The position numbers and the translations under genes were made by a program. Shown here piece after piece: positions 10,186 through 62,612 of a stretch of 64,000 nt of DNA; within the stretch, counting starts at the first letter, position 1, and each line of letters opens with the position of its first letter. The stretch lies in contig JALHYA010000001.1 of the NCBI GenBank assembly GCA_022868165.1, forward strand, positions 12,937-76,936, written 5' to 3'. The stretch is from Patescibacteria group bacterium. GTDB lineage: Bacteria > Patescibacteriota > Microgenomatia > UBA8517. The notes under the pieces are model-generated. The model had not been told where the DNA came from and ran no database searches. It saw nothing but the letters and a program-made list of their open reading frames with translations.

Positions 10186-10194
10186 AATATTATA

Positions 10195-12160: not shown

Positions 12161-12357
12161 GGTTGTATGTCTTTACTTGTTTGGGTCTGCTCGCCCAAAA
12201 CGGCCTCACCCTTGAGACTAAGAGAAAATTTAAAGTTTTGGTATAAAACCAGGAACAATATAAGGAAAATACTAAAGGCTATTGCCGGGATAAACAGCAG
12301 GTAGATATTGTGGCTGCGCTTTAAACGATTTTCAAAAATGTGTACGAACTCTTCCAT
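12157..12357 (-). CDS. small hydrophobic protein (possible)
   Basis: 66-aa ORF with one TM helix. Its stop overlaps the start of the next gene. Confidence 0.25.
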   Translation of the reverse strand: MEEFVHIFENRLKRSHNIYLLFIPAIAFSIFLILFLVLYQNFKFSLSLKGEAVLGEQTQTSKDIQP

Positions 12358-12375
12358 AGCAGGACTATTATTAGT

Positions 12376-13140: not shown

Positions 13141-13143
13141 CGG

Positions 13144-13226
13144 TGCTCTCGAGAGGATTCGAACCTCTACAGGATTACTCCCACAGGATCCTAAATCCTG
13201 CGCGTCTACCATTCCGCCACGAGAGC
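13144..13226 (-). tRNA. tRNA-Leu (anticodon TAG), class II
   Basis: Acceptor GCTCTCG/CGAGAGC, D-arm TGGCGGAATGGTAGACGCG, anticodon loop TTTAGGA, long variable arm, T-arm GAGGTTCGAATCCTC. Confidence 0.8.
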
Positions 13227-13323
13227 TTGTAGGTATATTATACCTTTTTATCCCTCTAGGCTGAAAGAAAGTCCGGTAGAATCGATTTTCTTCATAAGCA
13301 GAGCTTGTGCGTCAGATAGGTTC

Positions 13324-13848
13324 TTAAATTGTATAAGCTAAAGGAAGAGAATCTATCTTCCGCATAAAATACTTAACCTTCCATGCCCATGTAGTGCTCG
13401 GAGGAGCGTAACGTCTGGCGATTTGGTCTATAGAAACGGCACCTTTATCCAAATAGTTTTGTCTAAGGGTTTTGGAAACAACCTCAATAGAGGCGTTCCA
13501 AGAAGGAAAGCTGTAGTCTCCGTTTACCCATCCGTACGCATTGTAAGAGTTATACGGAATCTGTTTTCCGAAAGTGGATTCTACACCTGTGATTGAGGCA
13601 ACAAGTCTCCAATCAAGACCGTTTTTGTCGGCCTCGGCTATAAACTTTCCGGCATATGGAGCCAAGGGAGAATTATATTTCTCCAAAAATGCCTTAAGTT
13701 GAGAAACCCTAAGGTCGCCTGTTTCGCCTACAACAGACGTTCTTAATTGAGCGGATTCGTCGGCCACGCGGGAATCGGCCGATATAACTCCGGCCGGTAA
13801 AAACGCCATAGCGGAGGCGATGAATAAAGCTAAGATTAAATTTTTCAT
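13324..13848 (-). CDS. secreted lysozyme-like / SLT-like protein (paralog 1)
   Basis: Signal peptide, ITGVESTFG (ES-x-F SLT-like catalytic motif), and a paralog at 14783-15406. Family assignment is tentative. Confidence 0.45.
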   Translation of the reverse strand: MKNLILALFIASAMAFLPAGVISADSRVADESAQLRTSVVGETGDLRVSQLKAFLEKYNSPLAPYAGKFIAEADKNGLDWRLVASITGVESTFGKQIPYNSYNAYGWVNGDYSFPSWNASIEVVSKTLRQNYLDKGAVSIDQIARRYAPPSTTWAWKVKYFMRKIDSLPLAYTI

Positions 13849-13854
13849 ATTTCT

Positions 13855-13884
13855 CCAAAAAAGAGGTCCCCTTACGGAGACCTC
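13855..13884 (-). terminator. intrinsic-terminator-like hairpin in the leader of the 13324-13848 gene
   Basis: On the minus strand: GAGGTCTCC-GTAA-GGGGACCTC followed by TTTTTTGG, then GGAG and the ATG 12 nt later. A TTGACA-17-TATAGT promoter lies upstream of the hairpin. Confidence 0.5.
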
Positions 13885-14014
13885 AAGTAAAATCCTAACG
13901 CTCGGTGTGCTTGCGCAACCTTGCCTCAGGACGTGCGAGAACTATAGCATAACACTATCGGTTTGTCAAGTCTTTGGAGTCAAAGCCAGAACAGTAGTTA
14001 TACGGGTATTCTGA

Positions 14015-14773
14015 CTAGCTTATCTTTTGTGCTAGAACAAAAATCGACGGGCCGAAGTTTATATAACTTAGGGGTTTTTGGAAAGCGCTTTCCAGAGAGA
14101 TAAGGAGTTCCATAGGTATATATTTCTTAAGAATCCGGTTACGGAAATTGGAAACGGAAAGCTTATCCAAGACCTTAAAACCCGTTTTCTCCAAAATAAG
14201 ACCGACATTCTTTGGGTGATGGTTTAAGAAAGAGATTGTGTGATTGCGAATAGATTTGGGGCTTCTTGCGTCTTTGGGAGAAAGTTCGGAAGAGTAGTTT
14301 ATGTTTCCATGTAGCAGCTCCTTAAAAATAGCCTTAAAATGGAGTTTGTTGGCGAATTCCAAAACAAAAAAACCTCCGGGCTTCAGTAAAGAATTTACGG
14401 CCCGAAAAGCCGATTCCAAAGAAAGCAAATGGTGTGCAACACGCACCATGAGAACCAAATCTGCCCTTCCCTTGGGCACTTTTTCGGAAAGAATCTCAAC
14501 CGACGCCTGTACGAATTCCAGGTTTTGGTAGTTGGTCAGGTTTTTCCGGGCAAGGCTTAGAAGTTTGGCCGAAGGCTCGGCTATAATAACCTTTTTGCCT
14601 CTAAAGGCATAAACGGGAGTAAGTCTCCCAAAACCCGCTCCTATATCTATAATTGTCCCTATTTTCGGGATTTTCTCAAGTATTTTCTTAAGGGCAACGA
14701 CTTCCGAATTGTGTTCGTAGTCGCGTCCTTCCCAGTAGGCAGAGTAATCGTAGGAATCGTATGCTGCTGCCAT
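14015..14773 (-). CDS. class I SAM-dependent methyltransferase
   Basis: IIDIGAGFGRLT motif I. Confidence 0.65.
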   Translation of the reverse strand: MAAAYDSYDYSAYWEGRDYEHNSEVVALKKILEKIPKIGTIIDIGAGFGRLTPVYAFRGKKVIIAEPSAKLLSLARKNLTNYQNLEFVQASVEILSEKVPKGRADLVLMVRVAHHLLSLESAFRAVNSLLKPGGFFVLEFANKLHFKAIFKELLHGNINYSSELSPKDARSPKSIRNHTISFLNHHPKNVGLILEKTGFKVLDKLSVSNFRNRILKKYIPMELLISLESAFQKPLSYINFGPSIFVLAQKIS

Positions 14774-14782
14774 TTTGTGGGT

Positions 14783-15406
14783 TTATTGCATTTCGGACAT
14801 GAAAGTATTTACGCCGTGTGCCCAGGAGCCGTTTGAGGAAGGAGTATATTTGGACATGATTTGGTCCGGAGTAGTAAGCCCCTCGTCTATGTAATTTTCC
14901 TTAAGACCCTGGGAGACTGTTTCAATTCCCTCTTCGTAGGATGAAAAGCCCAAATTTGATTCGCTGTGAATTCCCCAACCCCAGCAATTATGGGAGCCGG
15001 GAGGAATAATTCTGCAAAGATTGGATTCCTGTTGGGCGATGGCCGTAATGAGCCTGAAATCAAGAGAATATTTATCCGCAGTATCCACGATATGCATGGC
15101 GTAAAGAACGAGTGGTGAGCCGTAGGAAGCCAAATATTGGCTTATTATTTCGGGTCTGGCGTCGGCGGCTTTAGCATTGCCTGCAACGGTGGGGATTGTG
15201 TTGGGCAAAGAAGCATAAACCCGCACTCCGGGTTTAGGCTCCACTATAAGATTGACTGAAGTTGGGGCCATCTTGGCCTGTACGTCCTTATTTTTGGCCA
15301 AAGAAACCAACGAAAACAAACTTGTAAGTAGTGCTATAGGGGTTATCGTAAAGAAAAGACTTACAAGAATTAAGTTTTTCCAGAAAGAAAAGTTGTCTTC
15401 CGCCAT
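14783..15406 (-). CDS. secreted lysozyme-like / SLT-like protein (paralog 2)
   Basis: AIAQQESNLC...NCWGWG aligns with paralog 1. Start trimmed to Met62 (MAEDNFSFWKNLIL signal). Confidence 0.45.
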   Translation of the reverse strand: MAEDNFSFWKNLILVSLFFTITPIALLTSLFSLVSLAKNKDVQAKMAPTSVNLIVEPKPGVRVYASLPNTIPTVAGNAKAADARPEIISQYLASYGSPLVLYAMHIVDTADKYSLDFRLITAIAQQESNLCRIIPPGSHNCWGWGIHSESNLGFSSYEEGIETVSQGLKENYIDEGLTTPDQIMSKYTPSSNGSWAHGVNTFMSEMQ

Positions 15407-15473
15407 ATTTCGCCTTTTGTCAGGATGCCACAAAAAGGGGTCTATAGTCAAGTTTTTGAGGCTAAAAATGGCC

Positions 15474-15518
15474 ACAAAAAAAGAGGGCACACCCTTAACT
15501 CGCGTCAGGTATGTGCCC
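15474..15518 (-). terminator. rho-independent terminator (minus strand) after gene 15552-16031
   Basis: Reverse complement: GGGCACA ... TGTGCCC stem followed by TTTTTTTGTG. Confidence 0.55.
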
Positions 15519-15551
15519 CAGCACCTTGTCATCAGATTTTCCCCAGGTTTC

Positions 15552-16031
15552 TTAGGCCTTGGTGAACACCAACAGGAGGGCGAAGACAATGACGATCACG
15601 ATAACAATCACTCTCCTCCTCTTCATATACGGAGAGAGGGGAACCCGTGCAGGCCGTATCGCTTCCCGTTCCTCCACCGTTAGATGTTTGTACTCATCCC
15701 AACCGATCATCTGCCCGGACCTGTCCCTCCTGGGTTCCCACTGCATCATTAAAAACCAACCGATGAATTCGAGGGTGAAACCCAGAAGCCAGCCGATGGC
15801 CGGATGGCGTCCTTTGCCTTTGGCGACTTTTCCACCCAGCCAAGTCCAGGCGGCCAGGTATACCGCAAAACAGCTCGCCTCCGCCAGGCTCCGCCCCAAA
15901 CATAGCCCGTGGGTCTGCCAAACAGGACCGGCTTGGCTGCAGTCTGAGTGGGCACTCGCTGACATGATCCAGAACCAGCAGGCTGTTATGTACAGGATTG
16001 CCGGTGCTGCAAGAACCCATTTCTTCTTCAT
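15552..16031 (-). CDS. high-GC membrane/lipoprotein-like protein (island gene X)
   Basis: RBS AGGAGGG 5 nt upstream of the ATG. N-terminal signal with ITAC lipobox-like segment, C-terminal IVIVIVIV TM helix. Coding GC is markedly higher than the surroundings. Confidence 0.55.
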   Translation of the reverse strand: MKKKWVLAAPAILYITACWFWIMSASAHSDCSQAGPVWQTHGLCLGRSLAEASCFAVYLAAWTWLGGKVAKGKGRHPAIGWLLGFTLEFIGWFLMMQWEPRRDRSGQMIGWDEYKHLTVEEREAIRPARVPLSPYMKRRRVIVIVIVIVFALLLVFTKA

Positions 16032-16134
16032 CACGCCCTCCTTGTGGCGAATTATTTGACCGGATTGTCAAGGTGCACAAAAATGCCCGATGTTTCGGGC
16101 AAGTAGCTATATTGTACTTCAATAGGTCAATTTT

Positions 16135-16190
16135 CACAAAAAAAGAGGGCACTCACCTTTGATGCTTTCGCTTCGCAGGTTTGTGCCCTC
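16135..16190 (-). terminator. rho-independent terminator (minus strand) after gene 16253-16678
   Basis: Reverse complement: GAGGGCAC ... GTGCCCTC stem followed by TTTTTTTGTG. Confidence 0.55.
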
Positions 16191-16252
16191 ATGCACCCTA
16201 TCGGAAGTTTAACCACCCGCACCCTTGCTGGACACCGCATTGAACTGGCGAT

Positions 16253-16678
16253 TCAATGCGCCTCAGCGCTCCACTCCCATTCTCCCAGTTCACATCTTGT
16301 TGTCTGTCCGAACGATAACTCCGGCCTCAGGTCAATCGTTCCACTCGCCTCCGTCGGCGACGTAAACCGACCCTCCGCCTCCCCGATGCTTGACGAGGAG
16401 ACATTAATGCTGCCATCACGAATCGGAAACGGCATTCCGGATGCCTGGCTGGCCCATGACCCGGCTGAAAACCCGTCGCATCGTACGTCCGTAAGGCTGA
16501 AACCCACAAACGTGATGGCCGCTCCGTCGTCCGAAACGGTAAAGGTGAACGTGCCGCTGCTGGCCCCTCCACTGATATCGATAGGACCGCTGAATGTGCT
16601 CCCAGGCTCAGGCATTGAAGTCCCGCCGCATGCAACCAAAAGCACTGCGAGTAGCACGAGATACATATGCCGTTTCAT
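16253..16678 (-). CDS. high-GC lipoprotein (island gene Y)
   Basis: RBS AGGAGGG then ATG. MKRHMYLVLLAVLLVAC with lipobox LVAC. Ser/Gly/Thr-rich mature part. Start taken at Met17 of the track ORF. Confidence 0.55.
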   Translation of the reverse strand: MKRHMYLVLLAVLLVACGGTSMPEPGSTFSGPIDISGGASSGTFTFTVSDDGAAITFVGFSLTDVRCDGFSAGSWASQASGMPFPIRDGSINVSSSSIGEAEGRFTSPTEASGTIDLRPELSFGQTTRCELGEWEWSAEAH

Positions 16679-16767
16679 CTCGCCCTCCTTGTGGCGAATG
16701 TGTGACCGGATTGTCAAGGTGCACAAAAAACCCGCTTATACGGGCAGTTCCTATATTATACTCTTAG

Positions 16768-16840
16768 TGAGCCGCCCGAGACTCGAACTCGGAACCGTTA
16801 CCTTAAGAGGGTACTGCTCTACCGATTGAGCTAGCGGCCC
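16768..16840 (-). tRNA. tRNA-Lys (anticodon CTT)
   Basis: Acceptor GGGCCGC/GCGGCTC, D-arm TAGCTCAATCGGTAGAGCA, anticodon loop CTCTTAA, T-arm CCGAGTTCGAGTCTCGG. Confidence 0.8.
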
Positions 16841-16852
16841 AAACGCACAAAT

Positions 16853-18277
16853 TCAGGCTATTTTACCATTTCGGGGAATCGAAAGCGAAATAATTTTTCT
16901 CAACTCGTCGATAATAATCCAAAAATCGGGCTTCTCGAGCGTTATCATCTGGAATTGAACGGCGTTGGTAAACACTTTGGAATCTTTTGCGAGTCTAAGA
17001 GAACCTACAAAAAAGCCCGAATTTTTGGGCGATGTCCCCCTAAAGAAAAGTATCCCTGTTCTTCTTGGCTCGATCTCGCCGAAAATCGGAATTTGCAAAT
17101 CTATGTTTTTGTTATCCAGCATTAGAGAAAGTTCTCCGTTTTTCCAAATCGATTGTCCCGTATTTTTGGCCAGAGCAATACCCCAAAACGTTTGATTGGA
17201 ACCAAGAAACGGCGGAATAAATAAGGCCATTATCTCCCCCGAGGTTTCCTGTTGGGGTTTCCCCGATTGTTTCGTCAGCGACGACACATCGTCGTAGAAT
17301 TTATAAAATTTTCCTGCGCTTTGTTTCCAACTGAATTGGGCAAAAAGCCCGTCGGTATAGGAAAGAATAAAAGGAGTTACTGCTACCACTCTTTTATCGT
17401 TCCATACGCTTTCGAAAGCAAATTTGAATTTGTCTCCCAAAGAGTCAGGATTTAAAAAGGCCCTTGTTTTCGGGTCGTCCGTTGTATGTGCCCAACCGGT
17501 TTCGGTGATAAAAACCGGCAGCTCTTTTTTAACCCCCAGAGAAGATAAAAGACTCAATTCCCAAACATAAGTTCTTACGGAACCTCGGCCGGTATCCGTT
17601 TCCGAACCGGTAAAATTGGGATTCGGATATGAGTGGGAAGACCATCCGTCAATGTATTTCAGGGCATCCGGAACGCTACTCACCATATTGGTCAAAAAAG
17701 TGGCCTCGTCCGTTGTATCTTTGGAGTTGGGAGCAGAAGCATCGAAACCCGCAGGCAGGACAAAATAATCAGGATTGTCGGCTTTAAGCTTTGAAGAAAA
17801 TGCCAAAAGATACTCTCCGTATTCTTTGGGGTTAACGAAACCTCCCCACTCCTTGGCGTGGTTGGGCTCGTTTCCGATTATGATATAGCGGTTTTTTATT
17901 ACCCAATTGAGACCGTCAAAAAAAGATATCCAGCCGTCTATTTCATCGGTAGAGGGTTTTTCCCAAGTCGAACCGTCTCCTACACCTTGTGTTGCTATTC
18001 GCACGATAGGAATAAGGTGGGCTCTTCTGGCCTGGTCGAATACCTTCTGCCAAGTGTTTATATCTCTTTGATTCTTTTGAATGACTAAAGTGATGTAGCC
18101 CCAATCCCCCCCGGTGGAATTTACCAAATGAGCAGCATCCTGCAAATCGGAAGAGTTTTCTATATGTATCCCGAATTTGTTATTGGGAACGCTTGTAGGG
18201 TCGTAGATTGCTAATGTTGTTGATGGTATTAGAACAAGAAGAGCCAAAGCAATGAAGATGCAAAAGATTTTTTTCAT
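16853..18277 (-). CDS. secreted glycoside hydrolase, GH5-like
   Basis: IIGNEPN (catalytic acid NEP) and ITETGW (nucleophile TE) motifs. Signal peptide MKKIFCIFIALALLVL. Start at Met13 of the track ORF, 7 nt after the tRNA-Arg 3' end. Confidence 0.6.
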   Translation of the reverse strand: MKKIFCIFIALALLVLIPSTTLAIYDPTSVPNNKFGIHIENSSDLQDAAHLVNSTGGDWGYITLVIQKNQRDINTWQKVFDQARRAHLIPIVRIATQGVGDGSTWEKPSTDEIDGWISFFDGLNWVIKNRYIIIGNEPNHAKEWGGFVNPKEYGEYLLAFSSKLKADNPDYFVLPAGFDASAPNSKDTTDEATFLTNMVSSVPDALKYIDGWSSHSYPNPNFTGSETDTGRGSVRTYVWELSLLSSLGVKKELPVFITETGWAHTTDDPKTRAFLNPDSLGDKFKFAFESVWNDKRVVAVTPFILSYTDGLFAQFSWKQSAGKFYKFYDDVSSLTKQSGKPQQETSGEIMALFIPPFLGSNQTFWGIALAKNTGQSIWKNGELSLMLDNKNIDLQIPIFGEIEPRRTGILFFRGTSPKNSGFFVGSLRLAKDSKVFTNAVQFQMITLEKPDFWIIIDELRKIISLSIPRNGKIA

Positions 18278-18284
18278 CAAAATA

Positions 18285-18358
18285 AGTGACCCAGGCGCGA
18301 ATCGAACGCGCAACCTACTCCTTAGAGGGGAGCCGCTCTATCCAATTGAGCTACTGGG
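18285..18358 (-). tRNA. tRNA-Arg (anticodon TCT)
   Basis: Acceptor GACCCAG/CTGGGTC, anticodon stem GCTCC/GGAGT, loop CCTCTAA, T-arm GCGCGTTCGATTCGCGC. Confidence 0.8.
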
Positions 18359-18364
18359 TCTCGG

Positions 18365-18436
18365 AGCGGGCGATGGGAATTGGACCCACTGTCTCTTCCT
18401 TGGCAAGGAAGCGTTTTACCGGTAAACTACGCCCGC
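18365..18436 (-). tRNA. tRNA-Gly (anticodon GCC)
   Basis: Acceptor GCGGGCG/CGCCCGC, anticodon stem CTTCC/GGAAG, loop TTGCCAA, discriminator U. Confidence 0.75.
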
Positions 18437-18439
18437 GCA

Positions 18440-18460
18440 GTGCCGAGGGCGGGACTCGCC
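18440..18460 (-). repeat. orphan copy of the 3' end of tRNA-Leu(TAA)
   Basis: GAGTCCCGCCCTCGGCACT (19 nt) duplicates the T-arm/acceptor 3' strand of the adjacent tRNA-Leu (18523-18609). No matching 5' half is present. Confidence 0.6.
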
Positions 18461-18522
18461 GTGCAAAGCATTATACCTTACCTGGCGCTATCGATCCCGA
18501 CCTTGAGCACGAGTCATCGAGT

Positions 18523-18609
18523 GCCGAGGGCGGGACTCGAACCCACACGAGGGATTTTACCCTCAAGGGATTTTAAGTCCCTTGTGTCTGCCAATTCCAC
18601 CACCTCGGC
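18523..18609 (-). tRNA. tRNA-Leu (anticodon TAA), class II
   Basis: Acceptor GCCGAGG/CCTCGGC, D-arm GTGGAATTGGCAGACAC, anticodon stem AAGGGA, loop CTTAAAA, long variable arm, T-loop TTCGAGT. Confidence 0.8.
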
Positions 18610-18690
18610 TAGCCACGTAATTATACGACATAATTGACAACTTCACACCATTTGCTTAAGCTGGAATAGACAGCGAAGGGGGGTGAAATA

Positions 18691-19074
18691 ATGAAAAAAG
18701 TTCTTCCGTTTGTTCTTTTCTGGATAGTCAATTCTCTATTTCTTTATCTGGCTTCGGTTGTCTATCCGTTCAAATTTGTTTTGGGTAATTTTAGGTTTTC
18801 GATGCTTTCGGCAACAATCTGGGCCGGCCTTTGGATAACTGTTTTGGGTTGGTTGGCTATTTGGCTGATCGGAAAGCTTAAAATCAAACTTTCGGGCGTA
18901 GCCCAGATGTTTATATCTTATTGGATAGTAAATGCCGCGGCCGTTTGGATAACAGCCCGTTTGGCAACTATTACAGGCTTTGGCATATTCAGTTTTTGGT
19001 GGGCTATCGGCTTGGGACTTATTCTGAATATTGTTCAGTCTGCTGTTTGGAAGCTGGGCAAATTTGAGATGTAA
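18691..19074 (+). CDS. polytopic small membrane protein (possibly DUF360-like)
   Basis: 127 aa with 4 predicted TM helices. RBS GAAGGGGGG upstream. Confidence 0.45.
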   Translation: MKKVLPFVLFWIVNSLFLYLASVVYPFKFVLGNFRFSMLSATIWAGLWITVLGWLAIWLIGKLKIKLSGVAQMFISYWIVNAAAVWITARLATITGFGIFSFWWAIGLGLILNIVQSAVWKLGKFEM

Positions 19075-19093
19075 CCCTGGTTGACCTTCGAGG

Positions 19094-19165
19094 TGCGCCT
19101 GGGGGGAATCGAACCCTCATTTTCGGTTCCGAAGACCGACGCTCTATCCGTTGAGCTACAGGCGC
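19094..19165 (-). tRNA. tRNA-Arg (anticodon TCG)
   Basis: Acceptor GCGCCTG/CAGGCGC, anticodon stem TCGGT/ACCGA, loop CTTCGGA, T-arm GAGGGTTCGATTCCCC. Confidence 0.75.
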
Positions 19166-19201
19166 TTTTTGTGTCTAAATTCAGGTATAATTATACCCCA
19201 G

Positions 19202-20296
19202 ATGAGCGACATTCGCGAACAAATCGAATCGATAGAAAAGGAAATTAGGGAAACCCCTTATCACAAGGGTACGGAACACCATATCGGAAAATTGCGGGCG
19301 AGACGTGCCCGACTCATCGATAAAGAGCTGGGTTTGGAAGCAAAAAAGACCGGCGGCGGGAGCGGCGGAGGATATGCTATCAAAAAACAGGGGGATGCAA
19401 CGGTCGTTTTGGTTGGACCTACCTCCGCCGGAAAATCGACACTAATAAATAGATTTACCAATGCCGAATCAAAGGTTGCCGCTTACGCATTTACGACAGT
19501 ATCTGTTATTCCGGGGATGCTTAAGTATCAGGACGCCTATATTCAAATCTTGGATGTTCCGGGACTTTTGGAAGGCGCAAGTGAAGGCAAGGGGCGTGGA
19601 AAAGAGGTTATTTCCGTAGCCCGTGGAGCCGACCTTTTACTTATAATGACGGATGTTGAAAGAGTCGCTTTTTTGGAAAAAGTTAAAGACGAGTTAAACA
19701 AATCCGGCATCAGAATTAATTCTCTTCCTCCCAAGGTAACCATTGTCAAGAAGAGTTATGGCGGAGTAAATGTTGTCACAAACGTCAAACAGCCGTTGGC
19801 CAAATCGACAATTGCCGAAATGGCCCGTGAATTCGGATTAAGAAATGCAGACATTACGCTAAAGGAATCCGTGAATTTTGAAGATATAATCGACGCTTTT
19901 TCCGGAAACAGGGTCTATTTGCCGGCAATATTTATTATAAACAAAATCGATCAAGAAAAGGATGGTCTCCGATACACCGATACAGATCACGATATCAATA
20001 TTCTAAAGATTAGTGCAGAGAAGGGAACAGGGCTTGATGAGCTCAAAAAGACTCTCTGGGATAAACTGGGTCTAATCAGAGTTTTTCTGGTCGGTCCGGA
20101 CGAGAAACCAAACTTGGACAAACCAATAATTGCAAAAAGCGGCGAGAATTTGGCCAAAGTTGCGGAAAAGCTCTCCACAGATATATTGGAAAGAAAGAAA
20201 CTTGCAAAAATTTGGGGCAATGGAGCACAGTTTCCCGGACAGGAAGTGCCGTTAACCACACCGGCACAGGAGGGAATGCAGGTTAGATTCATTTGA
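19202..20296 (+). CDS. DRG-type (developmentally regulated GTP-binding protein-like) OBG-family GTPase with TGS domain
   Basis: N-terminal IEKEIRETPYHKGTEHHIGKLRARRARL, G1 GPTSAGKST, and FTTVSVIPGMLKYQDAYIQILDVPGLLEGASEGKGRGKEV closely match the eukaryotic/archaeal DRG signature. Start at Met18 of the track ORF. Confidence 0.6.
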   Translation: MSDIREQIESIEKEIRETPYHKGTEHHIGKLRARRARLIDKELGLEAKKTGGGSGGGYAIKKQGDATVVLVGPTSAGKSTLINRFTNAESKVAAYAFTTVSVIPGMLKYQDAYIQILDVPGLLEGASEGKGRGKEVISVARGADLLLIMTDVERVAFLEKVKDELNKSGIRINSLPPKVTIVKKSYGGVNVVTNVKQPLAKSTIAEMAREFGLRNADITLKESVNFEDIIDAFSGNRVYLPAIFIINKIDQEKDGLRYTDTDHDINILKISAEKGTGLDELKKTLWDKLGLIRVFLVGPDEKPNLDKPIIAKSGENLAKVAEKLSTDILERKKLAKIWGNGAQFPGQEVPLTTPAQEGMQVRFI

Positions 20297-20324
20297 GCAG
20301 CCTTTTTGATATAATAAATGACTT

Positions 20325-20410
20325 GCAGGTGTGGCGGAATGGTAGACGCGCACGGTTCAGGGCCGTGTGCCCCTTATACGGGCGTGGAGGTTCAAATCCT
20401 CCCATCTGCA
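20325..20410 (+). tRNA. tRNA-Leu (anticodon CAG), class II
   Basis: Acceptor GCAGGTG/CATCTGC, D-arm TGGCGGAATGGTAGACGCG, anticodon loop TTCAGGG, long variable arm, T-arm GGAGGTTCAAATCCTCC. Confidence 0.8.
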
Positions 20411-20413
20411 CAG

Positions 20414-20497
20414 CGCACTCGTGGCGGAATTGGCATACGCGATAGCTTGAGGAGCTATGCCCGTAAGGGCGTGGGAGTTCGAGTCTCCCCGAGTGCA
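20414..20497 (+). tRNA. tRNA-Leu (anticodon GAG), class II
   Basis: Acceptor GCACTCG/CGAGTGC, anticodon stem ATAGC/GCTAT, loop TTGAGGA, T-arm GGGAGTTCGAGTCTCCC. Confidence 0.8.
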
Positions 20498-20704
20498 CTG
20501 CGTCGGAGCTCGACTTTAGCGCTTTGTTTCTCTTAAAGAAACTTCGCTGTTTTCAGTCGGCTCCTCCTTTCAAAATTGCTGCGCAATTTTGGTAAAGCGT
20601 TATACAAAAATCCGTAGGATTTTTGAGAGGAGGAACAAGCGAGCGGAAAAGATTTGTGCTTCGCAAGAAGCCAAATCGAAATAAGCAAGCTTCGTTCTGA
20701 CGAA

Positions 20705-20778
20705 GGTCGCTTAGCTCAGTTGGTTAGAGCGTGCGGTTTACATCCGCAAGGTCGGGGGTTCGAGACCCTCAGCGACCA
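20705..20778 (+). tRNA. tRNA-Val (anticodon TAC)
   Basis: Acceptor GGTCGCT/AGCGACC, D-arm GCTCAGTTGGTTAGAGC, anticodon stem TGCGG/CCGCA, loop TTTACAT, T-arm GGGGGTTCGAGACCCTC. Confidence 0.85.
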
Positions 20779-20782
20779 CTCA

Positions 20783-20855
20783 GCCGAGGTAGCCAAGGTG
20801 GTCACGGCGGGCGCCTGAAGAGCGTCAGATATGTGTTCGACTCACATCCTCGGCA
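20783..20855 (+). tRNA. tRNA-Phe (anticodon GAA), tentative
   Basis: Acceptor GCCGAGG/CCTCGGC, anticodon stem GGCGC/GCGTC, loop CTGAAGA, T-arm ATGTGTTCGACTCACAT. The D-stem has only 3 clean pairs. Confidence 0.55.
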
Positions 20856-20877
20856 CTTCTGCAAAGCAGAATGGCCC

Positions 20878-21141
20878 ATGTATAAAGTTTATTTGCTTAG
20901 AAGCAAAAAGATAGCAAGCAAATCATACATTGGAATAACTATTAAGTCTGTACATGAACGCTTACAAGAACATAATGAAGGTTTATCTAGATATACCAAA
21001 TCGTTCAGACCTTGGGAGATAATTTACTATGAAAATTTTTATTGTAAAACATGCGCAAAACAAAGAGAAAAGTTTTTGAAGTCAGGATTTGGGTATCGTT
21101 TTAGAAAATTGATCCTAGAGAGTTATACTAAACTTAGATAA
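20878..21141 (+). CDS. GIY-YIG nuclease-domain small protein
   Basis: MYKVYLL...YIGITIKSVHERLQEHNEG (GIY-YIG/URI motifs), 87 aa. The track ORF upstream of this Met is read-through of tRNA genes. Confidence 0.65.
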   Translation: MYKVYLLRSKKIASKSYIGITIKSVHERLQEHNEGLSRYTKSFRPWEIIYYENFYCKTCAKQREKFLKSGFGYRFRKLILESYTKLR

Positions 21142-21160
21142 TTAATTCTTCTTTGAAGAA

Positions 21161-21233
21161 CGGAGCGTGGCTCAGCTGGTAGAGCGCCTGGTTTGGGACC
21201 AGGAGGTCCCCGGTTCGAATCCGGGCGCTCCGA
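21161..21233 (+). tRNA. tRNA-Pro (anticodon TGG)
   Basis: Acceptor CGGAGCG/CGCTCCG, D-arm GCTCAGCTGGTAGAGC, anticodon stem CCTGG/CCAGG, loop TTTGGGA, T-loop TTCGAAT. Confidence 0.85.
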
Positions 21234-21252
21234 CAAGATAATAGGTTTTTAA

Positions 21253-21323
21253 GCGGGATTAGTTAATCGGCTTAACAACAGCTTTCCAAGCTGTGAAGAG
21301 GGGTTCGACTCCCCTATCCCGCT
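21253..21323 (+). tRNA. tRNA-Gly (anticodon TCC)
   Basis: Acceptor GCGGGAT/ATCCCGC, anticodon stem ACAGC/GCTGT, loop TTTCCAA, discriminator U. I first misread it as Trp and corrected the call on re-folding. Confidence 0.75.
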
Positions 21324-21356
21324 CCGAGTCTTCGAGGAGAGGGTCAAGGTAATCCT

Positions 21357-21371
21357 TATCCCGCTCCGAAT
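21357..21371 (+). repeat. orphan duplicate of the tRNA-Gly(TCC) 3' end
   Basis: CTTATCCCGCTCCGA repeats CTATCCCGCTCCGA (21314-21327), 35 bp downstream of the tRNA. Confidence 0.5.
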
Positions 21372-21373
21372 AT

Positions 21374-22090
21374 TTATTGAGCCGCTTTGGAGCTTCCTAC
21401 AAGTACTATCACATCAGAAGTTTCACCCGAAGGCAGAGACTGAGTTTTAGGATCCACCGAATACTTTTTGGACAAGGTTTCGGATAATTTCGTTACGAAA
21501 ACCGAGTCTATGCTTGTTCGGGTCTGTAAAACAGTATCCGTAAAATTATAACTATCCGCATTTCCTGTACCGGAGACTTTAAAACCTGCGGTTGTCAATA
21601 AATCTTGAACCTTTCCTGCTTCCCCTGCTATTCCGCTACCGTTTAAGACTTTAATTTGATATTTGGCTAAGTCAACCTCAGCTGAAGGAGAAGACGAAGG
21701 AGTCGGCAGAGATGACTCTATAGGCGTAGGGGTGGACGAAGAAGCATTTTTGTTTACGGAGTTAAGAAAATAAAAGACACCACCAGCCAAAGCACCAACT
21801 ATTATTGCAACAGGAATCATTATCCAGAATATGTACCAAAGAGATTTTTTCTCTTCGGTGGCTTTGGGAGATTCGGATTTGGGTTCTTTGGCTTCCTCTT
21901 TTTTCTCTTCTTTCGGTTTCTCCGGCTCGGGAGATTTATTCTCCTCCGTGGATTCTTCCTTTACCTCTTCGGCGGGAAGCTCGTCTATCTTTGCTGGCAT
22001 TTGGGCTTCTTCCGCTTCGGCGGTTTCTTGAGGCTCCTTAATCTCTTCTACCACCACTCTTTTTCTGTGTTCTTCGTCCTTTTTTGGCAT
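21374..22090 (-). CDS. LytR_C (cell-envelope-related attenuator C-terminal) domain protein with acidic N-terminus and TM helix
   Basis: VLNGSGIAGEAGKVQDLLTTAGFKVSGTGNADSYNFTDTVLQ matches the LytR_C pattern. Glu/Lys-rich N-terminus, one TM helix. Confidence 0.55.
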   Translation of the reverse strand: MPKKDEEHRKRVVVEEIKEPQETAEAEEAQMPAKIDELPAEEVKEESTEENKSPEPEKPKEEKKEEAKEPKSESPKATEEKKSLWYIFWIMIPVAIIVGALAGGVFYFLNSVNKNASSSTPTPIESSLPTPSSSPSAEVDLAKYQIKVLNGSGIAGEAGKVQDLLTTAGFKVSGTGNADSYNFTDTVLQTRTSIDSVFVTKLSETLSKKYSVDPKTQSLPSGETSDVIVLVGSSKAAQ

Positions 22091-22112
22091 AACTAAATAG
22101 AGTATAAACTAT

Positions 22113-23069
22113 TCAACTTTTGTTGGAAATGACAATTCCCTGTCTTACCGTTTTATCCTCAAGCTCGTACCATTGGTCGATAAAATCCTTGATTTTGACC
22201 ATCCTGTAACCTGCCTCCTCCGCAGGGTCGGAAAGAATAAAGTATTTGTCGTTAAATCCGACAATAACGGAGTAATGACCTTCACCGAATTTGTGCTTGT
22301 ACTGAAAATTGGCGATTACGGGATTACCCTTTTTTATCAAATCTTTAACCTCGTTTGCAGTCATTCCGACTTTATGATAGGCGTTAAAGTTCATCTTTTT
22401 TGCGGCCTCAACGATTTCTTGCGGGGTAGTTCCCTTTTTGGGAGTGCATTTGGTCAGCTTGACAAGATAGGGTTCTGATACCGGCCAACGAAGGTAATCC
22501 AAAACGATTTTCATTGCAGCAGGTCCGCAGGTCCAAACGACACTTTGCCGATATGTGCCTACGGGCAAGATAAAATAACTTCCCTCTTTGAGCAAAATTT
22601 CCAAATGCGAAGCCGTTGTGTGAGCGGTATTGTAGTCTTGCCCCTTCTGCATCAGGCCCCGCTCGATATATTCATGCCAGATAATTGACCACAACTCTTT
22701 TGTGCCTTTGTAAAGCTCGTCTATCCAGATTTCATAACGCGGTACATAAAGATAACGGTAGTCGTGGCCTCCCATTGTAAAATCCACATCTCCGGCCTTA
22801 AGCCCGCTGCGTAGCTTCTCTCCGTTGATAAACCAGACGGAAAGTCCCTGTAAGTTTGTGAATTTTTCTTGTTTGTAACTTAAAAACTTCTTTCCCCGTT
22901 CGGTTTCAAAGAATTTGCGCTTTTGGGCATGATATTCCTTCAGATTTTTGACCTTATCTATCCTCAAGGTTTCTTCCTGAATTTGGTATATTTTTGACAA
23001 TTCCTTAGGCACGAAGACGATTTTGTTTGGCCGAGGTTTGTTTGTGGAAACCCATTTTCTGCTTGGCAT
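22113..23069 (-). CDS. putative papain-like (C39-like) cysteine peptidase domain protein
   Basis: C-terminal VVWTCGPAAMKIVLDYL ... GEGHYSVIVGFND (Cys/His pair in a C39-like arrangement). Confidence 0.35.
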   Translation of the reverse strand: MPSRKWVSTNKPRPNKIVFVPKELSKIYQIQEETLRIDKVKNLKEYHAQKRKFFETERGKKFLSYKQEKFTNLQGLSVWFINGEKLRSGLKAGDVDFTMGGHDYRYLYVPRYEIWIDELYKGTKELWSIIWHEYIERGLMQKGQDYNTAHTTASHLEILLKEGSYFILPVGTYRQSVVWTCGPAAMKIVLDYLRWPVSEPYLVKLTKCTPKKGTTPQEIVEAAKKMNFNAYHKVGMTANEVKDLIKKGNPVIANFQYKHKFGEGHYSVIVGFNDKYFILSDPAEEAGYRMVKIKDFIDQWYELEDKTVRQGIVISNKS

Positions 23070-23141
23070 AGGTCAAATTATACCTGAGAAGCCGTTTTAT
23101 GGCAAAGAATCGGCTTTTGAAGTATAATTTCACTGTTATTT

Positions 23142-23214
23142 GGTGGGCGTAGCTCAATGGTAGAGCGCGAGCTTGTGGAGCTTGAGGTTGCGGGTTCGAT
23201 ACCCGTCGCCCACC
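23142..23214 (+). tRNA. tRNA-His (anticodon GTG) with encoded G-1
   Basis: G-1 then acceptor GTGGGCG/CGCCCAC, discriminator C73, anticodon stem CGAGC/GCTTG, loop TTGTGGA. Confidence 0.85.
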
Positions 23215-23307
23215 CTTAATTCGTTCGGTTGTTATAAATTGCCTCAATTGCCCCTCCCTAGCGAAATTTGACTATCTGTATGTAGAGATCTATTATTACG
23301 GTCCATC

Positions 23308-59314: not shown

Positions 59315-59330
59315 CGTGGATATTTTGAGG

Positions 59331-59404
59331 CGGGGCTGACGAGACTCGGACTCGCGACCTTCCGCGTGACAGGCGGACGCTCTAACCAACTGAGCTACAG
59401 CCCC
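59331..59404 (-). tRNA. tRNA-Asp (anticodon GTC)
   Basis: Acceptor GGGGCTG/CAGCCCC, discriminator G73, anticodon stem TCCGC/GCGGA, loop CTGTCAC. Confidence 0.8.
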
Positions 59405-59571
59405 AAACCGCTTGTATTTTATCATCCCAAGTAATTACGGTCAAAATGCCCTTGACTTATAGCATATGATACTTTAAATTCAGCACACATCTTCCTGCCT
59501 TAAGGAGGTGAACAAATCTGAATATAAAAGACACTCTTAAGGCAATCAAACTCAACGAATCTACTATCAGC

Positions 59572-60066
59572 ATGATATTGGGAGCATTGGTTATTGTTGT
59601 TGTCGCTGTTTTGGTAGTCAATTATTTCAAAGACCAAAAAGGGACTTCCCTACCCTTCCTTTCTAAGCAAGGCACCGAACAAACCGAGCAAACAGGCGCA
59701 AAAACCCACACGGTAGTCCAAGGAGAAAATCTTTGGCAAATAGCCGAACAATATTACGGTTCGGGTTATAACTGGGTTGATATTGCCAATGCAAATAATA
59801 TTGCCGATGCCAACCAAATCGAAGTCGGACAAAAACTAAATATTCCCGATGTTACGCCTAAACAGGCAACTACAACCGCTGTTGAACAAAAGGCTCCAAA
59901 TGCAATAACCGGAGCTACATATACTGTCGTTCACGGAGATAATCTATGGAATATTGCAGTCCGAGCTTACGGAGACGGTTATAAATGGGTAGAAATTGCG
60001 AAAGAAAACAAACTGGTTAATCCCAATATCATCCACGCAGGAAACGTTCTAACGCTTTCTAGATAG
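59572..60066 (+). CDS. LysM-domain protein (2 LysM repeats) with N-terminal TM anchor
   Basis: Two copies of the H/YTVV.G.NLW.IA...YG.G..W..IA..N pattern. The start may be an upstream non-ATG codon in the same frame. Confidence 0.7.
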   Translation: MILGALVIVVVAVLVVNYFKDQKGTSLPFLSKQGTEQTEQTGAKTHTVVQGENLWQIAEQYYGSGYNWVDIANANNIADANQIEVGQKLNIPDVTPKQATTTAVEQKAPNAITGATYTVVHGDNLWNIAVRAYGDGYKWVEIAKENKLVNPNIIHAGNVLTLSR

Positions 60067-60098
60067 GTGCATATGGCTGGTGTATAATTCGCATAGTT

Positions 60099-60169
60099 GC
60101 GGGATTAGTACACCGGTAGTACGCCACCTTCCCAAGGTGGAGAAGCGAGTTCAATTCTCGTATCCCGCT
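60099..60169 (+). tRNA. tRNA-Gly (anticodon CCC)
   Basis: Acceptor GCGGGAT/ATCCCGC, D-arm GTACACCGGTAGTAC, anticodon stem CCACC/GGTGG, loop TTCCCAA. TATAAT promoter at 60083-60088. Confidence 0.8.
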
Positions 60170-60176
60170 CAGTTGT

Positions 60177-60794
60177 ATGATTGAAAGAATTACTTTGCCA
60201 GGAGAAATAGATGGACATGGGTTCCTCGAAATGTACTTACGAGAATGTATCTATTTAAACTGTGATAGTGGTATTAATTATTTACCAAAACCCTACGAGT
60301 ATGCTGATATTCAACAAGCAAGAATTGATCCATCAGAAGTAAAACCAACGGCAAAATATGTCTTGCGAAGCAATCTGGCAACAATTGAAGCTTTGGACAA
60401 AGAGCTGTCAACACAAGGAATAGATATATTTAATCTCCACGGTGTTATAAAGATAGATGACAATAACTATATTTGTCCTCCTATTTTAGAGGTTTGGAAA
60501 GAAAAACCTTACAACGGAATTCCTGTCATAGTTGACGGACTCCATCGCTTATATATTGCCAGAAAAAGAGGCATTGAGATAAATTGCGTCCTAATTTCCG
60601 GTGAAATCTCCAGTATGCTTCCTGTATTACCACTGACAGGTTGGCATGAAGTGGTTGAACAAGACGCTGTACCCAAAGATAAACGTAACTATCACCCGGG
60701 AATACCGGCTCATTGGAAACCTCACGAGTTATATAGACGGAGATTTCATGGTTCTACGGGTCCAAGAATAGTTTTGAGTACAAGTAATACCTGA
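60177..60794 (+). CDS. ParB/Srx-like nuclease-domain protein (second paralog)
   Basis: 205 aa with VIVDGLHRLYIARKRG (DG.HR..A motif). The ATG is 7 nt after the tRNA-Gly(CCC) 3' end. Confidence 0.45.
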   Translation: MIERITLPGEIDGHGFLEMYLRECIYLNCDSGINYLPKPYEYADIQQARIDPSEVKPTAKYVLRSNLATIEALDKELSTQGIDIFNLHGVIKIDDNNYICPPILEVWKEKPYNGIPVIVDGLHRLYIARKRGIEINCVLISGEISSMLPVLPLTGWHEVVEQDAVPKDKRNYHPGIPAHWKPHELYRRRFHGSTGPRIVLSTSNT

Positions 60795-60887
60795 TTCTAA
60801 ATTTAACAAGGCCCGACCTGAGTACGCTTTCCAGCTCAGAAGATGGCGGAGAATAACCAATTTTGCTCTCAAAATTGTTGACTCCGC

Positions 60888-61430
60888 TCAGCCGCCTATT
60901 ACTCCTCCTAAGTGAATTTCTGCATCTCTCCACAAAGGATTTAGATAGGCGCGGGCTACTGCCTTCTCGAACAGTACGGGTTCCAAGTCTTCGTCGTAAG
61001 ACTTTAGTAGTTCTGACTTTGCTCCAAAAATTTCAAACCGTTCTCCAAAACCCGACTCGTTTCCCGCGTACCACCAAACCGCAATTTTCCAAGCACCAGG
61101 TTGGACTCCGGGTAAAACGTTGTCAGTGGCCATAATCAACCTTTTCTCTCCAGGCCAAATTAGATGTAAGGATATCTTACTTGCATCTTCGACTAATTCT
61201 TGTTGCTCCACTTCTACCCCTCTCAATCTTTTTATAACTATAAGCTCTCCCAACAGAGCCTCCAGGCGTGTATGCTCCAGAAATCTATCAAAGGAAACAA
61301 GGTTCTTTTTCCTAGCCCGGGCAAGTAACTCCGCATTTTCCTGCACCTTTGTGTCCTCTTTCCTCGCTCCGAGTGCTTGCTTCTGTCTTTCCTCCCCTTC
61401 AAGGCGATGTAATATTTCAGCTAATGACAT
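60888..61430 (-). CDS. hypothetical protein, convergent partner of the ParB-like gene
   Basis: 180-aa ORF, no recognised motif. Confidence 0.4.
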   Translation of the reverse strand: MSLAEILHRLEGEERQKQALGARKEDTKVQENAELLARARKKNLVSFDRFLEHTRLEALLGELIVIKRLRGVEVEQQELVEDASKISLHLIWPGEKRLIMATDNVLPGVQPGAWKIAVWWYAGNESGFGERFEIFGAKSELLKSYDEDLEPVLFEKAVARAYLNPLWRDAEIHLGGVIGG

Positions 61431-61492
61431 TTAATTCACCTCCTTATTATGTTTGCAGTATTATTATATGATAGTCATGACAAAGTCAATAT

Positions 61493-61518
61493 TGGTTCTA
61501 CTCCCATATCCCGCTCCG
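61493..61518 (+). repeat. orphan tRNA-Gly(TCC)-like 3' fragment (T-arm plus acceptor 3' strand)
   Basis: GGTTCTACTCCCATATCCCGCTCCGG versus the tRNA-Gly(TCC) 3' end GGTTCGACTCCCCTATCCCGCTCCGA, about 23/25 identical. There is no matching 5' half. Confidence 0.6.
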
Positions 61519-61556
61519 GCTTTGACTTCTCGATTTCTTCGTGATATTTTGTGCGT

Positions 61557-61754
61557 ATGGAAAGAGACAGAAATAGCGCTAGATTCGGCGTTTTAGAAGT
61601 CTTGGATAAAACCGGGGCGGATGCCGCTTCCAAAGGAGCAAGAAACGCTGCCAACTTTTTATTCGAAGTATCCAGAAAACTTAGTGCAAAATGGTGGCCA
61701 CGACGCATAGAAGATCCCAAAGCTGAAAGAGTTGCAGACGCTCACATCCCCTAA
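61557..61754 (+). CDS. small hypothetical protein (65 aa), leaderless
   Basis: TTGACT-17-TATTTT promoter ending 6 nt before the ATG. Host-like codon usage. Start at Met3 of the track ORF. Confidence 0.4.
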   Translation: MERDRNSARFGVLEVLDKTGADAASKGARNAANFLFEVSRKLSAKWWPRRIEDPKAERVADAHIP

Positions 61755-61820
61755 TTATTTGGGGTGCTTCTTAATCACAACCTCGTCAGCCTCATTGATG
61801 ATATAATTCGAGTTAGTTAA

Positions 61821-61892
61821 GCCAACGTAGCTCAGCGGTAGAGCAGTCCCTTCGTAAGGGAAAGGTCGGTGGTTCAATCCCACCCGTTGGCT
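61821..61892 (+). tRNA. tRNA-Thr (anticodon CGT)
   Basis: Acceptor GCCAACG/CGTTGGC, D-arm GCTCAGCGGTAGAGC, anticodon loop TTCGTAA, T-arm GGTGGTTCAATCCCACC. Confidence 0.8.
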
Positions 61893-61895
61893 CAG

Positions 61896-62612
61896 ATGGC
61901 AAGGTATTACTCAAGGTTGGCATCGGTTGAAGAAAAGCGCAACATTCGCCGGGCTTTTATATTTGGAGTCCTCACAATCGCGGCGATTGTTTTTTTGTTC
62001 ACAATCGGCCTTAACGTACTTACAAAATTCGTGGGAGTTATTTCCGACTTAAGAAAAACGTCCACTCCAATCGAAAAAACGGATACCACTCCTCCACCGC
62101 CCCCACGACTTGATACTCTTCCGGATGCAACCAATAATTCCAAAATTCAGATAACAGGAAGCTCCGAACCCGGCTCCACGGTTGAACTTTTTGTTAACGG
62201 AGCAAAAAACGAATCTTTAGCCGGAAACGACGGTGTATTTTCTTTCGATATCTATTTGGATAACGGCTCAAATAACATTTATGCCACGGCGAAAGACTCG
62301 GCCGGCAACGAAAGCGGTAAAACTCCCACTTATGAAGTCATATATTCGAAAAATCCTCCCAAAATAGACATCTCCAGCCCAAGCGACGGGGCAAAATTCT
62401 ATGGTAATAAGCAGCAGCAGATTACTATTTCCGGCAAGACCTCTCCCGACTCTTCGGTTACCATAAACGATAGAATCGTCGGCCTCCAAGATGACGGCTC
62501 CTTTTCCTCGTCGGTTTTCCTCAATGATGGCGACAATACATTTAAGATAAAGGTTCAGGATAAGGCTGGAAATACGGCCGAAAAATCAATTACGGTTAAC
62601 TATTCTCCCTAA
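61896..62612 (+). CDS. membrane-anchored protein with tandem Ig-like domains
   Basis: Start at Met10 (MARYYSRL...TM helix), 3 nt after tRNA-Thr. A PPPPP linker, then two ~90-aa beta-rich repeats (…GSTVELFVNG…; …SVTINDRIVG…). Confidence 0.55.
   Translation: MARYYSRLASVEEKRNIRRAFIFGVLTIAAIVFLFTIGLNVLTKFVGVISDLRKTSTPIEKTDTTPPPPPRLDTLPDATNNSKIQITGSSEPGSTVELFVNGAKNESLAGNDGVFSFDIYLDNGSNNIYATAKDSAGNESGKTPTYEVIYSKNPPKIDISSPSDGAKFYGNKQQQITISGKTSPDSSVTINDRIVGLQDDGSFSSSVFLNDGDNTFKIKVQDKAGNTAEKSITVNYSP

Follow-up and report, generated by a model that had tools for sequence, protein, structure and literature searches.

Recurrent insertion between tRNA-Gly(CCC) and tRNA-Thr(CGT) in Patescibacteria: a small hotspot with a probable att-like scar and reworked cargo

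Tyrosine integrases that target transfer RNA (tRNA) genes insert at the 3' end of the tRNA and thereby give rise to an attL/attR duplication. The locus described here resembles a degenerate tRNA islet or prophage remnant in its intact tRNA, its repeat of the T-arm and acceptor, its accessory cargo, the existence of empty sites, and the reuse of the same tRNA in different lineages. It occupies the interval between tRNA-Gly(CCC) and tRNA-Thr(CGT) in a 64,000-nucleotide (nt) stretch (hereafter, the window) of contig JALHYA010000001.1 from a Patescibacteria group bacterium of Microgenomates type, whose nearest named relatives, judged by PolX, are metagenome-assembled genomes of Woesebacteria and Levyibacteriota. 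Taking the evidence as a whole, we consider it probable that this interval is a hotspot of integration and recombination that holds an att-like scar and reworked cargo. An earlier note on the same DNA had seen in it the footprint of an integrative element. The integration target, the att-like scar and the empty sites support that view, but there is no integrase, the boundaries differ from those proposed and the genes do not form a unit. The features on which the argument turns are as follows (coordinates are those of the window).

60099-60170, plus strand: tRNA-Gly(CCC), "type B" allele, called by ARAGORN; left boundary of the hotspot and presumed attB/attL
60171-61820, no strand: inter-tRNA insertion zone of 1650 bp (~1.65 kb), drawn from gap sizes and contents in relatives
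60177-60794, plus strand: gene for ParB-CE, a ParB/Srx-fold protein of 205 amino acids (aa) assigned to Pfam PF24392, with its start codon 7 nt after the tRNA
60888-61430, minus strand: gene for a 180-aa orphan protein with a predicted long N-terminal helix, then a beta-rich part, and a C-terminal ARAYLNPxW
61494-61517, plus strand: orphan tRNA-Gly 3' fragment of 24 nt (T-arm and 3' strand of the acceptor), GGTTCTACTCCCATATCCCGCTCC, recognized as a direct repeat and by shuffle test
61821-61893, plus strand: tRNA-Thr(CGT), called by ARAGORN and Rfam; right boundary of the hotspot

ARAGORN, Rfam, open reading frames (ORFs) and Pfam agree on a tRNA-Gly(CCC) followed by a ParB/Srx-like gene and a convergent 180-aa gene, as the earlier note had described. 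The Rfam tRNA model scores 61.8 bits on tRNA-Gly(CCC) (60099-60169), and an identical copy of this tRNA is present in 10 related contigs. Together with a candidate ORF of 65-67 aa, ParB-CE and the 180-aa orphan make up the cargo of the interval, three small genes in all.

Relatives were collected by a PolX-based scan of species genomes and an exact-pattern metagenome scan with the 3' half of tRNA-Gly(CCC), which returned ~75 further loci (numbered with an L prefix below). LysM lies 5' of tRNA-Gly(CCC) in most of them, and tRNA-Thr(CGT), Ig-like and Wzy genes lie 3' in many, giving the order LysM, tRNA-Gly(CCC), gap, tRNA-Thr(CGT), Ig-like, Wzy; the placement of tRNA-Thr(CGT) next to the Ig-like and Wzy genes is kept in relatives. 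Measured over ~70 loci, the gap from tRNA-Gly to tRNA-Thr is 3 bp in L068, 23 bp in L070, 47 bp in L058, and 89 bp in L025, L036 and L069; other loci have gaps of 387, 427 and 765 bp and of 1.1-2.7 kb, and the gap reaches ~6.6 kb in L086 and L088. The short-gap loci (3-89 bp) share the LysM upstream and Ig-like/Wzy downstream flanks. A tRNA-Gly directly before tRNA-Thr, as the earlier note had anticipated for an empty site, therefore exists, but the small ORF (61557) that it had expected to remain there is absent: at empty sites, the entire stretch between the two tRNA genes is missing, and with it the sequence to the right of the fragment.

The contents of occupied gaps differ nearly as much as their sizes. 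ORFs of the surveyed gaps fall into 115 clusters, almost all lineage-specific and mostly singletons, and the genome-collection relatives L016, L017, L018 and L020 each hold different genes in the gap, or almost none. Conservation of the two genes at this position in all relatives, which the earlier note had named as grounds against its own reading, is not seen. Cargo elsewhere includes inositol monophosphatase, an EEP-family enzyme, an ExoX-like exonuclease, radical-SAM, membrane and Bro-N proteins, and an IS110 transposase. Defense-type proteins detected in gaps by PADLOC are SoFic, a type I restriction-modification specificity subunit and AbiEii. The only transposase seen is of the IS110 family (DEDD_Tnp_IS110 and Transposase_20), at L031 420-1622, ~300 nt 3' of tRNA-Gly(CCC). 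In L088 (~6093-12400), genes in the 6.6-kb gap encode two Bro-N proteins and an HhH-GPD-like protein, alongside a 561-aa ORF, which may be the source of a PIF1-like helicase match in the cargo survey; this gap resembles what a larger mobile element might leave behind. Given the gap sizes and the differing contents, we treat the whole interval 60171-61820 as the insertion zone.

Within this zone, the orphan 3' piece without a 5' half that the earlier note had reported is real. GGTTCTACTCCCATATCCCGCTCC matches the last 24 nt of the same genome's tRNA-Gly(TCC) (21302-21325) at 22 of 24 positions, and none of 100 dinucleotide shuffles of the window contained a fragment-type match at three or fewer mismatches. 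With the adjacent tRNA-Gly(CCC), the fragment forms a 22-nt repeat at 82% identity (60149-60170 and 61495-61516), the longest direct repeat in 59900-62000, with an exact 10-nt core, TATCCCGCTC. The proposed likeness to tRNA-Gly(TCC) holds as a match, but not as a statement of origin: the fragment is equally near (2 mismatches) to the "type A" tRNA-Gly(CCC) allele of sister lineages, GGTTCAACTCCCGTATCCCGCTC, and so need not derive from tRNA-Gly(TCC). ARAGORN and Rfam (E up to 10) report no tRNA at the fragment, and the DNA upstream of it is the AT-rich promoter of the 180-aa gene. A complete tRNA pseudogene at 61445-61525, which the earlier note had named as a competing possibility, was rejected because neither alignment nor ARAGORN nor Rfam recovers a 5' half. 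The fragment is placed between two divergent -35-like hexamers and is therefore probably not part of a transcribed RNA. It is conserved with one base changed in L004-L007, and the homology breakpoint with L008 lies inside it.

Same-strand tRNA-Gly 3'-end pieces downstream of tRNA-Gly(CCC) occur in at least six independent lineages, including the window, L020, L026, L044, L049 and L092. A 32-nt probe matched 4 of 62 non-redundant loci, where shuffles predict 0.185. Among these matches, the one in L070 is the T-arm of the adjacent tRNA-Thr; the window lineage, L020 and L092 are cases additional to the four. The pieces outside the window lineage are listed here.

L020: exact repeat of 13 nt, CGCTCACCCGCTC, at 5102-5114, separated from tRNA-Thr by 4 nt and from tRNA-Gly(CCC) by 1.1 kb
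L044 (Ga0182027_10000637): piece of T-arm and acceptor, carrying a 5-nt indel and located at +1.29 kb, bounding a mini-island at ~1605-2977
L026 and L049: pieces that begin ~40-65 nt 3' of the tRNA
L092: exact repeat of 14 nt at +26

In L044, the cargo is a single full-length SoFic gene of 351 aa (1698-2753; PADLOC E 1.9e-50; Pfam Fic and winged helix-turn-helix), without an integrase. In L020, the repeat and tRNA-Gly(CCC) enclose one 267-aa orphan ORF (5272-6075) that has no Pfam or PADLOC match. The L020 and L092 repeats bear the unusual acceptor sequence of their own lineage, CGCTCACCCGCTC and CCCTTACCCGCTCC respectively, which is the pattern of an attL/attR duplication rather than of a decayed tandem tRNA gene. 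The recurrence of 3' pieces in at least six lineages points to this site as a recurrent integration target and to the fragment as an att-like scar.

Comparison with close strains resolves a different, finer layer of variation, for which three further features are needed.

60195-60691, no strand: divergent allele block within ParB-CE, a recombination mosaic seen by strain comparison
60846-61511, no strand: strain-variable cassette comprising the 180-aa gene, its own promoter and its 3' region, delimited by three-way alignment
61460-61489, minus strand: promoter-like site TTGACT-18-AATAAT of the 180-aa gene, followed by the Shine-Dalgarno sequence AAGGAGGTG (consensus scan, 10/12)

The layout of the window is found again in L005, and likewise in L004, L006 and L007. 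L008/L009 have flanks ~90-94% identical to the window at the nucleotide level and retain PolX, LysM, tRNA-Gly(CCC) and ParB-CE (84% aa identity). Identity between the window and L008 stops after ...CGCTTTCCAGCT (60845), 51 nt past the ParB-CE stop, and restarts at CGCTCCGGCTTTGAC (61512); where the window has the 180-aa gene, L008 has an unrelated 101-aa ORF, and L008 also has an extra 183-aa gene, inserted after the small ORF and before the promoter of tRNA-Thr. The stretch from tRNA to fragment, taken earlier as the unit that comes and goes, is accordingly not the unit that varies: close strains swap only 60846-61511, and at greater distance the whole of 60171-61820 varies.

The ParB-CE gene is itself mosaic. 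The left flank (59899-60194) is 96-100% identical across the window, L008 and L005. Over 60195-60591, the window is 77-81% identical at the nucleotide level to L008 and L005, versus 94-100% between L008 and L005; over 60692-60891, the window and L005 are again 94-99% identical. A drop in guanine-plus-cytosine content to 36% coincides with the divergent block. The mosaic ParB-CE gene and the cassette swap together indicate that the locus has been reshuffled both by homologous recombination within genes and by replacement of whole cassettes.

The 183-aa gene of L008 documents movement over a longer distance. Its product is homologous to the 180-aa protein of the window, with 26% identity, and L099 has a 183-aa gene in the same hotspot without ParB-CE. 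L008 5579-6190 is 91.6% identical at the nucleotide level to L099 (reverse strand, 4986-5625 in reverse-complement coordinates), promoter included, and the LysM DNA flanking the cassette is only ~68% identical. We read this disparity as direct evidence, at the level of sequence, that a single-gene, promoter-bearing cassette has moved between diverged genomes, probably recently and by horizontal exchange. The family to which both proteins belong is small: it comprises only 12 clusters among 1.84 billion representatives, all of 172-193 aa. The profile search called for in the earlier note was made against PDB and Pfam and came back empty, and the 180-aa protein has no match in NCBIfam, PADLOC or PHROG either; its L008 183-aa homologue has insignificant matches only (E ~0.1) in PHROGs. 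A match to the 1712-aa P0040 in the 180-aa profile search was set aside as a repeat-protein artefact, and a function could not be drawn from the AlphaFold2 model, whose mean confidence (pLDDT 49) is too poor for a fold search.

ParB-CE has a ParB/Srx fold. It matches the Pfam PF24392 "ParB CE domain" with E 1.7e-14 and 54.5 bits (cut-off 23), and its invariant residues include P101-P102, E105, D120-G121-x-H123-R124, W156 and R197, among them the motifs PPxxE and DGxHR. Its fold neighbors, with scores in parentheses, are sulfiredoxin (7.7), Atu1540 (7.4), the free serine kinase SerK (7.3), SbnI (7.1), PadC (6.6), pNOB8 ParB-N (6.3) and KorB (5.8), and Foldseek also supports the fold. The earlier description as a ParB-like nuclease is therefore right as to family, but the nuclease label is unproven and not justified by the fold and the DGxHR motif, as kinases and a reductase are equally close. 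Homologues form 29 clusters at 34-84% identity, all from Patescibacteria or WWE3. ParB-CE has no PADLOC or PHROG match and nothing significant in NCBIfam, and the papers available to us make no mention of PF24392 or of "ParB CE" in the Pfam sense. Within the tRNA-Gly to tRNA-Thr gap, ParB-CE occurs only in the window's lineage and in L091/L092; its settings in lineages other than the window's are given below.

L091/L092: ParB-CE in the same hotspot, among HIT and peptide deformylase genes; the L092 protein is 67% identical (aa) to that of the window
L011: ParB-CE adjoining Obg
L093: ParB-CE between TsaD and a VanW protein
L095 (WWE3): ParB-CE among small ORFs

Because its context differs between genomes, we take ParB-CE to be a stand-alone gene, one that changes location. 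The cargo as a whole (ParB-CE, the 180-aa orphan and the 65-67-aa ORF) is accessory and independently assorted, and by analogy with the SoFic gene of the parallel mini-island in L044, it is plausibly related to conflict or defense. PADLOC gives no defense-protein match for ParB-CE, the 180-aa protein or the small ORFs of the window, and PHROG none for those small ORFs or for the 101-aa ORF of L008.

We propose the following course of events, in which the part of the integrase is reconstructed from comparative data. The ancestral state was likely two adjacent tRNA genes, and foreign DNA has repeatedly come in at the 3' end of tRNA-Gly(CCC), in at least some cases probably by way of a tRNA-targeting site-specific (tyrosine-type) integrase. 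If attP carried a tRNA-Gly 3' half (cf. GTTCAAYTCYCGTATCCCGCTC), integration would rebuild the tRNA and push the old 3' end downstream, and the attR-like piece at 61494-61517 would be that old end, either displaced or duplicated. Later deletion would have removed the integrase together with most of the element, leaving an immobile remnant. Change by other routes has continued, as the strain comparisons show: the 180-aa gene is a self-contained cassette (promoter, Shine-Dalgarno sequence and gene), exchanged among strains and transferred across diverged genomes, and a divergent allele has taken the place of the first two-thirds of the ParB-CE gene via homologous recombination. On this account, the fragment in the window is most likely the scar of an old site-specific integration.

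Several observations weigh against this account. Neither the interval nor any of the surveyed gaps between tRNA-Gly and tRNA-Thr encodes an integrase or recombinase, and none is among the top Pfam families of the window. The strain breakpoints (60845/60846 and 61511/61512) are out of register with a common core, the mobile 183-aa cassette has no att-like ends, and in L092 ParB-CE sits to the right of that genome's own fragment. Fragments only ~26-65 nt from the tRNA (L092, L026 and L049) could arise by local partial duplication. In IMG/VR, there is no phage or viral contig with the fragment or a ParB-CE relative and no exact attP-like match; as PHROGs likewise gave no match for the window genes, a phage origin was rejected.

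The alleles of the tRNA pose a further difficulty. The tRNA-Gly(CCC) genes of L001-L090 fall into two alleles in which D-arm and T-arm co-vary: type A combines the D-arm GTTAAGCGGCCTAAC with the T-arm ACGGGTTCAACTCCCGT, and type B combines GTACACCGGTAGTAY with GCGAGTTCAATTCTCGT. The resident tRNA of the window is type B over its whole length, D-arm included, and the fragment is nearer to type A, so a simple crossover in the T-loop cannot alone explain the allele type of the fragment. An argument that the nearest relatives have a type A tRNA was dropped, because the closeness of L055 and L028 amounts to 35-43 aa of LysM only. Encoded CCA was also considered as a marker of ancestral versus element-borne 3' ends and proved uninformative, as resident genes are of both kinds: ~11 resident tRNA-Gly(CCC) genes encode it and the remainder do not. 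The lack of an integrase, the allele mismatch, the breakpoints off register and the gene order in L092 together suggest that the fragment is an old scar in a reworked zone and not the end of live cargo.

The same difficulties lend some weight to other origins for the fragment. It might be the remainder of another tRNA-Gly gene (a tandem duplicate, or a TCC or GCC copy once present) whose 5' part was lost to unrelated insertions without any site-specific integration; an integrase is absent wherever we surveyed, the fragment is as close to its own genome's tRNA-Gly(TCC) (22/24) as to any tRNA-Gly(CCC) allele, and the resident tRNA differs from the fragment type along its whole length. This origin is nonetheless unlikely, because a second intact tRNA-Gly between tRNA-Gly(CCC) and tRNA-Thr occurs in 0 of ~70 loci, six lineages show the 3' part only and always on the same strand, and the L020 and L092 pieces carry the unusual acceptor of their own lineage, as an att duplication would give. 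That so short a fragment resembles a tRNA 3' end by chance is refuted by the shuffles (0/100 at three or fewer mismatches), by its conservation in sister strains and by the parallels in other lineages, and we assign this virtually no probability. Recurrence of small islands fits an alternative in which a recombinase supplied from another genomic locus or from a phage places cassettes without an integrase at the 3' end of tRNA-Gly, with the repeats as live sites: three independent mini-islands of one or two genes, in the window, L044 (SoFic) and L020, lack an integrase and have the tRNA at one edge and a 3' repeat at the other, and TTTCCAGCTCAG, at the left strain breakpoint, agrees with TATCCCGCTCAG, at the tRNA end, in 10 of 12 positions. 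That match was noticed only afterwards, however, and ~0.08 of its kind would be expected in the 2.1-kb region; the fragments show divergence and partial decay (82% in the window, an indel in L044), the breakpoints are out of register, and the 183-aa cassette that moved has no att-like ends and does not keep one position within the gap. We give this alternative little credence. A tandem-cassette model that would put a second core at the left breakpoint (TTTCCAGCTCAG against TATCCCGCTCAG) was rejected on like grounds, being post hoc, with breakpoints off register and the sequence located in a hairpin after ParB-CE. In its boldest form, a trans-acting recombinase of this Patescibacteria clade would load single promoter-bearing genes into the tRNA-Gly(CCC) 3' end in an integron-like manner, and ParB-CE and the 180-aa family would be new stand-alone defense genes; the three integrase-less mini-islands suggest such a scheme, the decayed repeats and att-less cassette ends weaken it, and we hold it improbable.

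A separate question is whether ParB-CE and its convergent 180-aa neighbor constitute a two-gene module (toxin/immunity or defense) and were the joint cargo of one element; the earlier note had suggested that the pair could be a small defense or toxin module. The two genes lie next to each other and converge in both the window and L005, L008 has members of both families in another order, the hotspot holds defense genes elsewhere (e.g., SoFic in L044), and both genes diverge strongly between strains. When the pair was sought at other loci, however, each gene turned up without the other: ParB-CE lacks a 180-aa relative in L011, L092, L093 and L095, and the 183-aa gene occurs without ParB-CE in L099 and its cassette moved alone. 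As neither protein has a PADLOC or PHROG match and each gene stands without its partner, we conclude that the two are not a module and regard their joint entry as very unlikely. The reading we retain is that of an integration and recombination hotspot in which an att-like scar and independently acquired genes lie side by side.

Two smaller features complete the interval and its left edge.

60060-60088, plus strand: promoter-like site TAGATA-17-TATAAT, 5' of tRNA-Gly(CCC) (consensus scan, 10/12)
61522-61764 with its signals, plus strand: candidate small ORF of 65-67 aa, starting at ATG 61557 or GTG 61551 and stopping at 61754

The promoter-like sequence upstream of tRNA-Gly(CCC) is conserved in L008 and L005. 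The candidate small ORF is flanked by a promoter-like site (61522-61550) and a terminator-like hairpin (61749-61764), is overlapped by an 81-aa ORF on the opposite strand, and is 93-96% conserved at the aa level, in L005 and L008 only. Core genes elsewhere in the window include GatA/B, enolase, DnaE, Obg, UvrC and RuvC. The window has 19 tRNA genes; 15 of these fall inside 5125-23215, where they form small clusters on both strands. An ORF for a DNA methylase (N6_N4_Mtase) occupies 395-2098, and a bulk Pfam scan of the window returned two ORFs of the "Phage_holin_4_2" family. To the left of the hotspot, tRNA-Asp(GTC) with ~17 nt of upstream sequence (59329-59421) is inverted relative to L008 2845-2938, with ~92% identity in the flanks of that close strain, and L008 has an extra 186-aa ORF at 2981-3541, directly after the tRNA-Asp 3' end. 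Both orientations of tRNA-Asp occur among related metagenome loci, and no tRNA-Asp 3' fragments or flanking inverted repeats were found around the inverted tRNA-Asp.

Finally, we return to the systems with which this locus invites comparison. An integron-type cassette array was considered and rejected, as there is no integrase and the cassette ends have neither a shared repeat nor an attC-like hairpin. Relative to the sulfiredoxin, Atu1540, SerK/SbnI, PadC and pNOB8 ParB N-domain members of the ParB/Srx superfamily, ParB-CE shows 10-17% identity, lacks a helix-turn-helix, DNA-binding domain or fused partner, and has N- and C-terminal parts of its own. PF24392 (ParB-CE) and the ~180-aa orphan family are uncharacterized and clade-restricted, and since both vary sharply between near-identical strains, they are candidates for conflict-related functions in a host group whose mobile-element and defense biology is poorly known.

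Among described architectures, the degenerate tRNA islet or prophage remnant introduced at the outset differs from the locus in the window as follows: the latter has no mobility gene, its island is only 1.3 kb, and its strain-variable unit is not the att-bounded unit, with the far boundary of variability at tRNA-Thr. Hotspots of horizontal gene transfer, or "defense islets," between core genes share with it the conserved flanks, a gap content that differs nearly everywhere and promoter-bearing single-gene cassettes; the window is set apart by its 0-6 kb scale, its reduced Patescibacteria genome and a cargo that matches no known defense family. The SoFic mini-island of L044 has the same architecture of tRNA-Gly(CCC), accessory gene and 3' fragment, again with no integrase; its cargo is a recognized single-gene defense system (Fic and winged helix-turn-helix), and that of the window is unrelated and uncharacterized. 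In summary, accessory genes have repeatedly entered reduced Patescibacteria genomes at one particular pair of tRNA genes, as empty sites and independent parallels document. The architecture is a classical one, that of a degraded tRNA-linked islet or hotspot of horizontal gene transfer, and the locus provides a fresh example of it in a little-studied phylum.

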